Positions 28,931-32,973 of a stretch of DNA of 64,000 bases are shown in pieces. The DNA comes from Amoebidium appalachense. Lineage: Eukaryota; Protista; Ichthyosporea. Location of the stretch: positions 20,096,125 through 20,160,124 of the forward strand of contig CAVNZM010000001.1 in the NCBI GenBank assembly GCA_963693365.1, given 5' to 3'. The notes under the pieces are model-generated. The model saw only the letters and a program-made list of their open reading frames with translations, searched no databases and was not told the DNA's origin. The position numbers and the translations under genes were made by a program. Within the stretch, counting starts at the first letter, position 1. The number at the start of each line of letters is the position of its first letter.

Positions 28931-30993
28931 AAAAAAAAAAAAAAAAAAACGCTCCCAACCTCCAACCTCCCCTATGTGGACTTCCATATACTAACCCGCA
29001 GCTACTAACCCGCAGCACCTTGTGTTATGTCTCACAAACACTCGGAACGTGCTGTGACCTATGTTCATGCAATTACTACTCTCTCATCCATCTCTCCCTC
29101 TCTCTACTCCCTCCCCCCTCCCCCCGACACACACACACACTCACTCACTCTCTTACAATCCTTCTCTCCCTCACATATACGTACACGAATACTAACAAAC
29201 ACGTGCCCGCGCTCATTCACATGCACCTACATCCCCCCCCCCCCCCCCCCCCCTCTTCCCCCCTTCCGCCCCCCCCCCCTCTTCCCCCTCCCCTCTCCCC
29301 CCCCATTGTGTTCTCCGTCGTGAAAGTGTACTCTGTATTTTATAACACATCTGAAAACCCCCTTCCCCTCACCCGCCCTCTCCTCCCCTCCTCCTCCTCC
29401 CCGCTCCCCCCTCCCCCTCCCCCCTCCCCCCGCCCCCCCTCACCCGCCCTCTCCTCCCCTCCTCCTCCTCCCCGCTCCCCCCTCCCCCCGCCCTCTTCCT
29501 CCCTCCCCTCCGTGTATGCGTACTTCGTACCGTTTTCCGCATTCAAACCCCCGCTACCCCACACACACACAGTCGTCGCTAGTAGGAGGCAGCATGCAGG
29601 TAGTACTTGGGGGCTACAAGGGGCTGCTCGAGGGGCCCATGCGTGAGATGTACCTGGGCATGGCGGCTGTGTGTGGGCCCATGGGCTACCTGCTGGTGCC
29701 CACCACTTGCTATGACGAGGCCATGGTCGTGTCATTGATGCTGGTCAAGCTGCTGGCCCGCTACAGGAGGTACGGGGGGTTTATTTATAGCACTCCACGT
29801 GCATGGGTGGGCTATTTATGTATTGAAATGCACGGTTGCTGTTGTACTCCCTCCCGGCCACCCATTATGCCACATACTTTCCGCCCTGCGCTCTGGGTTT
29901 TTTGTTCGTTTATCCTGCAATGCCCTGGAGTTTCATCTGCACTGTTCATTGATCACCTCCCTTCCCCCTCAACTTGCACACACCCGTGCCCCTTCTCCCT
30001 TACGACCTGAGAAGATGCACACCAACACCTTTTTGGCGCATTCACATCGTTGAATACATGACTGACCCCCCCTCCCCCCCTCCCTTCCCCCCCCCCCCCC
30101 ATCTTTACTTCCATGCAACCGGGCATGGTTGCTCTGTGTCGTGCATCTGTAAGCACATACGCGTTTGTCGCTGCACTGCATTAGTTTGCACATACATCTT
30201 CACCGTTTTGCTCACCTTGCTTGCATAAGCAACCCTGCTCGTCTTTGATCAAGACGGGTTGACCCACCCAAGTTCAGTTGATGCTGCTGTCTGAGTTGGA
30301 GCGTCGTATATACGCGGGCTAAGGGGTCGAAACTCAGACGCAATTGATGACTTGGGCCCTCCCTGAGGATGGGCTCTGCTTATGACGCATACTGTGCGCA
30401 TGGCTGATGCTGCATACTTGAATGTTTGCCTTTGCATGTGTCCTGCACCATGCTTCTCATCGTGTATGCGTACTTCGTACTGTGTTCCGCATTCAAAACC
30501 CCCCCCCCCCCCCCCTCCCCCCCCTCCCCCCCTCGCCATCACCACCATCACCACCACCAACCACACCACCACCACCGCCCTATCCAACCACCTGCCCTCC
30601 TCGTGCTCAATAACGTGCATAAGGTGCGAGCACATACAAAGAAATCCTAGCACCTTCCCCCACTCGTCCCGTCACACACGCACATACACCTAGCACACAC
30701 TCACCACCTACACACAGGCACTTGCAATCCATCCATCTACGCTCTCCTACCTGCACGCACACTTACACACACACACACACACACACGCACACACGCGCAC
30801 ACACCTCCTACCCGCACGCACACTTCCACGCACGCACGCACGCACGCGTGTGCGCACACACACTCACACTCACACTCACACTCACACTCACACTCACACA
30901 TGTACACAGATCTGTGACCATTCTCTCTCCTCTCACTCCCCCCACACCACCCATCCTCTCGATGCCACCCCTCAAATCCATACTCCCACCCGA

Positions 30994-31024
<31 letters not shown>

Positions 31025-31221
31025 ATGTTCAAGTGAAACAGTATCTGAGTTGGGTTTCGTTAACGAGGTGAATAGGTCGAAACTCGGGTACTGTGGATGA
31101 CGTGGGGCCCCCCTGAGGATGGGCTCTGCTTATTATGCATACTCTTTATGTATGGCTTGCATTCTGCATCGTGTTATCCGTTTGTTCTTGTGTAATTCGT
31201 ACTTTTTGACGCATTCAAACC

Positions 31222-31252
<31 letters not shown>

Positions 31253-32672
31253 ACACTCACCCCCCCTCCCCCTCCCCCCGCGCCCCCCCCCCCCCCTCCC
31301 CCCCCCTCCCTAAAACCCACCACACACACATGACAGCCAAACGGGGTCCATTCCCTCGCGCAAGGGCCACCCGTGTGGGCGTGAGGAGCCACTGACGCGC
31401 ATTGTGCCGTGGGCCAGTGTGCATGCGCTCTTGGGGGGGAGTGAGGATGCCCTCAGGGCCACGATATGTGGGGCTCACTTTCTGGGCATCTGCACGGCTG
31501 CGGATGGCTCGGACACAAACACACGCACGGATAAGATGGTGCGGTTCTACGTGTCGCTACTGTTGTGGGTCGAATTGGGGTGCTATGTCGTGTTTGATCC
31601 CGATATGGAAAGATTGCAGGAGATAGCCAATCAGATTGCAAAGTCGAGCGAGTATGAGCGCAACCCGAGTATAAGGGCGGAGATATTGAAAGCAAAGTTG
31701 GAAAGGGAGGAAGAGAGGAAGAGAAAGTTGGAAGAGGTGGAGAGAGAGGGAAAGAGGGCAAAGGCGGAAAGAGAGAGCAGTACGTGGGGTAAATCCCCAG
31801 CGGTGAAGTCGGAGTCGGGAGGAGTTGATGGGAGGGTGTCACGGTCGCTACCCGATGTGAAAAGTGAGTCGAGTCTGAACGTGATCATGCCCCAAGTGAG
31901 GGAGAAAACACCCAACCGTACTAGTGAAAGCGTAGAGAAGGGGAGCAAGCAAACACGGGAGGATGAGGAGGCGAAAACCGATGACAAGGGGAGGAGGGTT
32001 ATAACGAGGTGGGGAACACCCGATGATGGAAAGAGGGAAGAAACGAGCGGGAGGGGGAGATCGGTGTCACCTCGGAGAAGAGTTGAGAAAGAAGAGAGGA
32101 AGGAGAGTGAAAAAACAAAGTGTGAGAAAAAGGAGAAACAGGAGAGAAAGGAGACAAAAGATAAACCAACACATAGCCGCTCAAGCGTTTATTCCCCCAG
32201 TTCGAAGGATAAGAAGGATATGAGGAGAGAGAGAGACCGGGATAGAAGAAGCAGGAGTCGTGAAAGGTCAAGAAAGGACAACGAAGGGAAGAAACGTGAA
32301 AAGGAGCAAGGAAGAGAGAAAGAAGACGAGAGAAGGTCGTCACGGCGAGAAACTATATCAAAATCGGACCGGAAATCAGACCGGCAAGAGAGTGTGCCCA
32401 AGAAGACAGGAGGTGAATCCGATCGGAAAGAGGTTAAACCGGAGGTGGGTCGAAAGGAAGATTCCAAGCCAGCACCCCCCAAAGCCAATGAAATTCAGCC
32501 GCAGGAGGAAAAACCCATGCAGGGACTTGACCAAGTGTGCCGGTGTGTGTACTGCAAGAGCACTGTCGAAATTTCGAAGGCAGAAAGCATGTGCAGGGGG
32601 GTCGATTTTGCGCATTTGAAATTTGGGGCAGCGCCAAGGCGGTGGGCAAGGATTGTGAGGCAGCTGGCATAG
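25473..32672 (+). CDS. Large uncharacterised protein, paralogue B (~1088 aa), same architecture as paralogue A
   Basis: Exons 25473-25910, 26947-28241, 29573-29769, 31337-32672; needs +1 base in the G10 run at 27766-27775. Blocks shared with paralogue [65 protein letters not shown]....[23 protein letters not shown]. Confidence 0.85.
26460..26595 (+). mobile_element. 5'-truncated copy of the poly(C)-embedded repeat (subfamily B)
   Basis: Starts CGGGTACTGTGGATGAC after a C run, ends GACGCATTCAAAA + poly(C). Confidence 0.8.
30215..30498 (+). mobile_element. Poly(C)-embedded dispersed repeat, subfamily A, long copy containing the structured RNA domain
   Basis: Homologous to 32725-32973; ends CGCATTCAAAA followed by poly(C); in intron 3 of paralogue B. 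Confidence 0.75.
30224..30384 (+). ncRNA. Putative structured RNA (multi-stem + pseudoknot), family not recognised; second full copy at 32734-32887
   Basis: Stems CATAAGCA/TGCTTATG, CTCGTCTT/AAGACGGG, CCCAAG(T)TCA/TGACTTGGG, GTCTGAGTT/AACTCAGAC, GCGT/ACGC, GCCC-TCC-CTGA-GGA-T-GGGC, pseudoknot GACCC/GGGTC; substitutions in the other copy largely preserve pairing. Confidence 0.55.
31022..31219 (+). mobile_element. 5'-truncated copy of the poly(C)-embedded repeat (subfamily B)
   Basis: Matches 32776-32973 almost exactly; poly(C) on both sides. Confidence 0.8.
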
Positions 32673-32724
32673 CATCAGAGAACGTAGGGTCCCCCCCCCT
32701 TTAACCCCCGGCCTTTCCCACTGC

Positions 32725-32971
32725 CCTTGCCTGCATAAGCAACCCTGCTCGTCTCTGATCAAGACGGGTGACCTACCCATGTTCAAGTGAAACAGTATCT
32801 GAGTTGGGTTTCGTTAACGAGGTGAATAGGTCGAAACTCGGGTACTGTGGATGACGTGGGCCCCCCCTGAGGATGGACTCTGCTTATTATGCATACTCTT
32901 TATGTATGGCTTGCATTCTGCATCGTGTTATCCGTTTGTTCTTGTGTACTTCGTACTTTTTGACGCATTCA

Positions 32972-32973
<2 letters not shown>
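32725..32973 (+). mobile_element. Poly(C)-embedded dispersed repeat, subfamily B, long copy containing the structured RNA domain
   Basis: Near-identical over shared lengths to 31022-31219, 26460-26595 and 43587-43697; ends GACGCATTCAAA + poly(C). Confidence 0.8.

Follow-up and report, generated by a model that had tools for sequence, protein, structure and literature searches.

A dispersed repeat in the genome of Amoebidium appalachense carries an RNA domain that is almost certainly a hammerhead in ancestry or fold. The repeat was analysed in a 64,000-nucleotide stretch of contig CAVNZM010000001.1 (assembly GCA_963693365.1, positions 20,096,125 to 20,160,124 of the forward strand; hereafter the window), which is intron-rich eukaryotic DNA with abundant (CA)n and C-runs. 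On balance we favour the interpretation that the domain is a split-core, kink-turn-braced hammerhead in the strand order of type SGC, which would cut after G-U-U (30297 in copy 1, 32805 in copy 2) and aid the RNA processing of a retroposon that inserts in C-runs. An earlier note on this DNA had described a structured + strand RNA within a retroelement, which agrees with our results. Its statement that the fold does not match hammerhead was wrong: GAAA, CUGAGGA, G-U-U and stems I-III form a hammerhead core in a non-circular, SGC-like order. Stem I and the kink-turn (k-turn) had been overlooked.

Core and helices of the domain

The two full copies of the domain (30224-30384 and 32734-32888, both on the + strand) represent two subfamilies, family 1 and family 2. 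Each contains all elements of the hammerhead core rule: C3 U4 G5 A6 N7 G8 A9, G12 A13 A14, the A15.1-U16.1 pair and H17. The core boxes are GUU (30295-30297 and 32803-32805), GAAA (30329-30332 and 32833-32836) and CUGAGGA (30363-30369 and 32867-32873), complemented by the G10.1-C11.1 pair. All 16 core positions checked are unchanged in both full copies, against 60% identity over the remainder of the domain (naive P ~3e-4). GAAA and CUGAGGA lie within the conserved motifs TCGAAA and CTGAGGA, which the earlier note had taken to be unpaired; the T and C of TCGAAA are in fact paired and close the GACC/GGTC helix.

Read from its 5′ end, copy 1 starts with one side of an inserted domain (30224-30258), made up of the closing strand CATAAGCA, CCC and the hairpin P1 (30238-30244/30252-30258). 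The 5′ strand of stem II (30261-30265, G10.1 at 30261) is followed by the first strand of a helix linking stems I and II (30267-30272), the bulged strand of the k-turn (30274-30282), the extended 5′ strand of stem III (30283-30297), which ends in G16.2-U16.1-U17, and the 5′ strand of stem I, GGA(G) (30298-30301). The predicted cut falls between 30297 and 30298. In the second half, segment 30324-30344 comprises the 3′ strand of stem II (30324-30328), G12-A13-A14-A15.1 (30329-30332) and the 3′ strand of stem III. Segment 30345-30369 comprises the 3′ strand of the k-turn (U-GA-UGA, 30345-30350), the second strand of the linking helix (30351-30356), a linker, the 3′ strand of stem I (30359-30362) and the C3-A9 box. 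An extra U after A9, GGG paired to CCC, and the closing strand TGCTTATG complete the closing helix (30370-30384). In copy 2 G10.1 is at 32770, U16.1 at 32804 and U17 at 32805, and the predicted cut is between 32805 and 32806; its k-turn is formed by 32783-32791 with 32849-32854.

Stems I-III lie in register on the core (3-4, 5-6 and 8-13 bp, respectively), and each contains a double change that preserves pairing. Stem I pairs GGA, 3′ of the cut site, with UCC, 5′ of CUGAGGA; in copy 2 it is GGG/CCC, an A-U to G-C change. Stem II is the pseudoknot of the earlier note and starts at the canonical G10.1-C11.1: GACCC/GGGTC (30261-30265/30324-30328) is replaced by GACCTA/TAGGTC (32770-32775/32827-32832), and the proposed C-G to U-A change was verified. 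So was the change from CCCAAG/CTTGGG to CCCATG/CGTGGG in the linking helix (A-U to U-G). Stem III corresponds to the long central stem of the earlier note, whose covariation was borne out by three more double changes. The inner hairpin GCGT/ACGC, said to become TCGT/ACGA, could not be supported: the region is identical at 7 of 23 positions, and the variant at 30302 (A in 29-55% of depth in family-1 contigs of three runs) has no partner change listed at 30314.

The view that two diverged copies share one pairing stood, with the helices found where they had been placed. Comparison of 49 pairs between the copies gave 36 identical pairs, six double and three single changes that keep pairing, and four pairs that are open in one copy. 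The six double changes are spread over stems I-III and the linking helix; one of the four open pairs is due to 32877, where A is private to copy 2 and G accounts for ~100% of contig depth. When the 17 substitutions were placed at random on the 62 helix positions, equally few broken pairs were obtained in 0-80 of 200,000 trials, and shifting the partners by 1-3 columns lowered pairing from 96.7% to 31-41%; both controls are lenient toward the structure, since the two copies themselves were its basis. Minimum free energy z-scores were weak (-1.88 and -0.01 for 150-nt pieces that lack the closing strand).

The sequencing evidence consisted of contigs in every run, one of which (X15) is perhaps RNA, and the public DNA contigs carry the repeat in large numbers: 14,378 contig records on copy 1 (run X1), and 7,070 (run X2) and 4,668 (run X4) on copy 2. 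One stem II pair varies on both sides at similar, unphased shares, with 32774 T>C and 32828 A>G at 3.9/2.8% in X2 and 4.9/4.4% in X4, and the commonest variants sit in linkers or loops, or yield G-U pairs.

An unrelated new fold that resembles a hammerhead by chance is barely credible. The boxes are short, and the Rfam search proposed in the earlier note gave no relevant match at gathering or E-value thresholds. Three boxes, three in-register stems, G10.1-C11.1 and A15.1-U16.1 nevertheless all fit, and a validated family, type SGC, has the same order. A descriptor of the wiring found both full copies and nothing else in the 64 kb, compared with 0.01 matches per window in 100 shuffles. Four other folds (RNase MRP, HDV-like, pistol and lariat-capping) were also considered and were dropped because the hammerhead core fits fully.

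Type-SGC order, kink-turn and inserted domain

The domain does not belong to hammerhead types I, II or III, as its strand order is S-G-C and no Rfam model matches it. Type-SGC hammerheads (HRIMA-1 and variants) cleave in vitro (Eckert et al. 2023, PMC10085705), and the domain shares with them the full core and the block order S-G-C, here GUU, GAAA and CUGAGGA. As in SGC, the 5′ strand of stem I is linked to the 3′ strand of stem II, and a helix joins the other strands of these stems; its counterpart, called the 'I' interaction in SGC, is the linking helix 30267-30272/30351-30356 with its one double change. The extra U after A9 also has a parallel in the SGC-1 construct, in which CUGAUGA and stem II are separated by an added U (PMC10085705, supplement).

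The differences are equally clear. At the A9/G10.1 junction the chain is open and holds a two-helix plug, and the 5′ strand of stem II has its place at the domain's 5′ end. The k-turn connects stem III to what in SGC is the free 3′ end. The spacing of stems I and II is 20-25 nt, as against ~3 nt in SGC, position 17 is U, and the molecule is encoded by a genomic retroposon whereas SGC examples are metatranscriptome RNAs. Eckert et al. assume that block C is never split, and regard a link from the SGC 3′ end to stem III as hard to square with the crystal structure (PMC10085705). The term 'kink' has no occurrence in a term search of the text and supplement of that paper. By membership tests the domain thus falls outside types I-III and type SGC, and we infer that it works in a hammerhead-like way.

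An unbroken block C is absent, since stem II contiguous with CUGAGGA has 0 bp in both copies, and allowing the U to bulge gives only a weaker, mismatched duplex. It is improbable that activity resides in an ordinary type-SGC hammerhead with an imperfect stem II right after CUGAGGA-U, in which the upstream GACC strand and the closing helix would serve as an off-switch. The downstream duplex can form (-5.6, -2.9 and -2.3 kcal/mol in copies 1-3), and block C would then stay unbroken with an extra U, as in SGC-1. However, this duplex has a G.G mismatch beside the core, is tied up in the closing helix and forms less strongly than the upstream stem II (-8.5/-7.0 versus -5.6/-2.9 kcal/mol); moreover, the exact supply of G10.1 by GACC and the paired changes at 32774 and 32828 would be left unexplained.

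The split-core arrangement, which we prefer, places the opening at the joint where SGC-1 (PMC10085705) and Penelope hammerheads (Cervera and de la Pena 2014, PMC4209133) carry an extra nucleotide; as judged from these sources, A9/G10.1 would on this ground be the most tolerant joint of the core. Penelope hammerheads conserve the extra nucleotide between 9 and 10.1, and share with the present domain G10.1-C11.1 and a location near the retroelement end. They differ in being type I circular permutations that are in many cases minimal and dimeric, while the domain described here is non-circular, ~160 nt long and has a long stem III. Assembly of the core only between two copies of a tandem transcript, after the manner of minimal Penelope hammerheads, seems very improbable: Penelope hammerheads do act as dimers (PMC4209133) and copies of the present element occur in stacks, but a single copy already contains all three stems in full, and the k-turn would give a monomer the bend that it needs.

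Both families have a k-turn signature between stem III and the CCCAAG/CUUGGG helix, with UCA/UGA, three bulged bases, G.A and A.G. A bulge of three nucleotides is a rule of kink-turns, and the other sequence rules, the G.A and A.G pairs and flanking C and NC helices, are followed as well. In copy 1 the bulged strand consists of the C-stem UCA, the bulge GUU, G1b and A2b, with U at 3b. The motif is located 14 nt from A15.1 in both families, and its third position is U.U in family 1 and A.G in family 2. In the standard consensus G.A occupies 1b.1n and A.G 2b.2n (McPhee et al. 2014, PMC4382518). The family 2 k-turn, with A.G at 3b.3n, resembles Kt-7 and the ion-folding type. The family 1 k-turn, with U.U at 3b.3n and a C.A mismatch two pairs on, is unlike Kt-7 and may need protein or tertiary contacts. 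In a structural model of this kind the k-turn would supply the bend for closure between stem III and the linking helix, and it suggests how SGC forms that join these two elements could be close in space.

The strands of the plug are identical at 34 of 35 and 20 of 21 positions between the subfamilies, while those of stem III are identical at 8 of 12 and 5 of 12. Conservation of the plug while the catalytic stems diverge is what is expected of a protein-binding site or of recent exchange. The earlier note offered a novel ribozyme or a protein scaffold: the domain is probably a ribozyme, it is not novel in kind, and the scaffold idea may hold for the inserted P0/P1 domain.

The split-core wiring was not found described in the literature searched, with the extra-helix variants of Weinberg et al. 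2015, reportedly a source for hammerheads with additional helices, left uncompared. The passages of Perreault 2011 describe only short core insertions, and those of Forgia 2023 have no bearing on the wiring.

Arguments for and against self-cleavage

GUU is among the cleavable NUH sites (PMC3138052), and we lean towards measurable self-cleavage of the domain by the split-core route. Several observations weigh against this. The covariation comes from two subfamilies only, that is from a single comparison, so that each double change counts as one event. The closing stem and the CTCGTCT/AGACGGG hairpin are conserved, as the earlier note had it, and covariation is silent on them because compensatory changes are missing there; a G>A variant (10-16% of depth in X2) breaks one pair of the hairpin. 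Stem I has only 3-4 bp, and the variant 30360 T>C (12-33%), which may or may not stem from contigs of other subfamilies, has no listed partner at 30300. Mispairing of U17 with A14 is possible, and this nested, inactive pairing is the one predicted by ViennaRNA. The absence of core variants in the contigs is not significant alone (P 0.27 and 0.32). The predicted cut site is spanned by three of the 14 fragments of the repeat in the window, and none of the six mapped 5′ truncations begins at it (offsets -30, +33, +55, +55, +55 and +56). Finally, insertions beside CUGAnGA never exceed 1-2 nt in known alignments according to Eckert et al. (PMC10085705).

Nor were relatives detected among the loci listed from viral contig, metagenome and prokaryote genome collections. 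Pattern scans yielded 45, 1 and 0 loci in viral contigs, at least 119 in metagenomes and 29 in prokaryote genomes. Only one of the 194 listed loci (L107) passed the descriptor. Covariance model R1 matched none of 28 selected loci, among them L107, and a BLAST comparison of the copies with the first 164 loci found nothing.

The same observations bear on a rival that we judge unlikely, yet the most serious one: a hammerhead-derived fold that has no useful cutting rate and is kept as a scaffold binding the reverse transcriptase of the element. The opened core, the 3-bp stem I and U17 are in line with it, as are the genomic copies that span the cut site, of which none begins there, and a plug conserved by sequence and not by covariation. 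If the RNA were cut 170-200 nt before its 3′ end, the priming end would also be parted from the body unless the two were rejoined. Against the scaffold stand the 16 of 16 core positions kept across subfamilies so diverged elsewhere, and the listing of GUU as a cleavable NUH site (PMC3138052).

For the cleaving split-core hammerhead we propose the following scheme. A type-SGC hammerhead may have had its two ends joined through a kink-turn and been opened anew at the A9/G10.1 junction; a closing helix together with a hairpin, inserted at that opening, would hold A9 beside G10.1. By bending the long stem III back, the k-turn would let the linking helix reach the tips of stems I and II, where it would take the place of the usual loop I-loop II contact. 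Cleavage would probably be slow, given the possible mispairing of U17 with A14 and the shortness of stem I; with a GUU site and an opened core it might also be reversible. As genomic copies span the site and no mapped truncation begins there, the templates were presumably uncut or rejoined. Four helices would keep the two pieces paired once the RNA is cut, and this would favour rejoining, or the formation of circles from tandem transcripts; cutting and rejoining of such transcripts could, more speculatively, produce unit or circular templates. A reverse transcriptase supplied in trans might prime at the ...CATTCAAA/C-run 3′ end, and the sequence-conserved plug is perhaps the place where it binds.

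A wider version of this scheme is tentative, and we think it rather doubtful as a whole: an active seventh hammerhead wiring beyond the six of the block scheme, with the A9/G10.1 split, a k-turn brace, a protein-binding plug and cut-and-rejoin of the retroposon to circles, shared with animal HERO or Naiad elements, old and eukaryote-wide. If the split-core hammerhead is real, the catalytic strand of a hammerhead can open and accept a whole domain, contrary to the assumption of the published permutation scheme. Copies of non-circularly permuted ribozymes would then number in the thousands within ordinary eukaryotic genomes. The wiring also offers a possible reason why some retroelement groups appeared hammerhead-free. 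A core-adjacent plug site would be useful for ribozyme switch design.

The repeat and its surroundings

A profile search revealed 14 fragments of the dispersed repeat in the window, 12 on the + and two on the - strand, and thousands of contigs per run contain the repeat, which confirmed that it is mobile. Nine of the 14 fragments have a common 3′ end, each running into a C-run, and the 5′ ends vary. The fixed 3′ end, variable 5′ truncation and dispersed high copy number are the signature of a target-primed retroposon (non-LTR or Penelope-type) with C-runs as its insertion sites. No reverse transcriptase motif was found within the 64-kb window.

Copy 1 (family 1, 30101-30497, +) is 5′-truncated, has C-runs on both sides and ends in ...CGCATTCAAA. 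Copy 2 (family 2, 32700-32973, +) is inserted in a C-run and followed by C29. The ribozyme domain lies 200 nt (family 1) and 168 nt (family 2) from the 3′ end of the element, and contig loose ends at 30103 and 32699 indicate that the element extends upstream in other copies. A 5′-truncated family-2 copy (31022-31222, +), 98.5% identical to copy 2, cannot form the split core alone because both the 5′ strand of stem II and the inserted domain are missing from it. Further fragments are a 5′-truncated family-2 3′ fragment (26458-26594, +), three stacked 5′-truncated fragments (43549-43760, +), a 5′-truncated third-subfamily fragment with 84% identity to copy 2 (16984-17091, -) and a stack of truncated, diverged 3′ fragments with C-runs between them (32995-33395, +). 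In the last of these, 33167-33222 retains GATGA, CCC, CTGAGAA and a third variant of the linking helix, CATGGG.

Four of the six mapped 5′ truncations occur in the C-run right before CUGAGGA (equivalent to 32861-32862), a cluster that could reflect microhomology to the C-run target or stalling of the reverse transcriptase at the fold. One X14 contig links 30497 back to 30100, which is possibly a head-to-tail unit. Many contigs have a truncated copy joined to a 3′ end with its C-run, and nested insertion explains these too. In a low-depth X4 contig telomere-like TAGGG repeats are joined inside the ribozyme at 32844.

The targeting of C-runs resembles that of Chlamys elements; Chlamys/Naiad elements share the insertion bias to (C)n and (CA)n and partial tandems (Craig et al. 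2021, PMC8557442). That paper reports no canonical hammerhead in them, though some hold core boxes fitting no descriptor. The present element may or may not belong with them or with HERO elements: no linked reverse transcriptase or GIY-YIG gene was found in the 64-kb window.

The open reading frame (ORF) 31314-32672 was considered as a protein of the element and rejected: it has no Pfam family and no homologs. It is probably only an insertion site, because a C-run forms the junction between it and copy 2, and the upstream sequence of other copies is different. The ORF is part of a three-ORF cassette in an old inverted duplication (17130-23972 on the - and 25440-32672 on the + strand, centre near 24.7 kb), in which 25440-26153 matches 23319-23768 (45%), 26947-28313 matches 20094-21839 (33-43%) and 31314-32669 matches 17156-18321 (53% and 34%). 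None of the cassette ORFs has a Pfam family at cut-off, and the second had one weak match among 1.84 billion representatives; the cassette may be cargo of a mobile element. Both copies of the charged-residue-rich ORF have a copy of the repeat in a C-run ~20-40 nt downstream (32672-32700 and 17097-17130), in the same orientation and from different subfamilies.

Host exons amid introns rich in (CA)n and C-runs occupy 1500-8000 and 56500-58900. They include a dual-specificity phosphatase exon (7552-7788, PF00782) and, by eye, hydrolase-like exons near 1540 and 2200 as well as minus-strand exons of RasGEF-like type.

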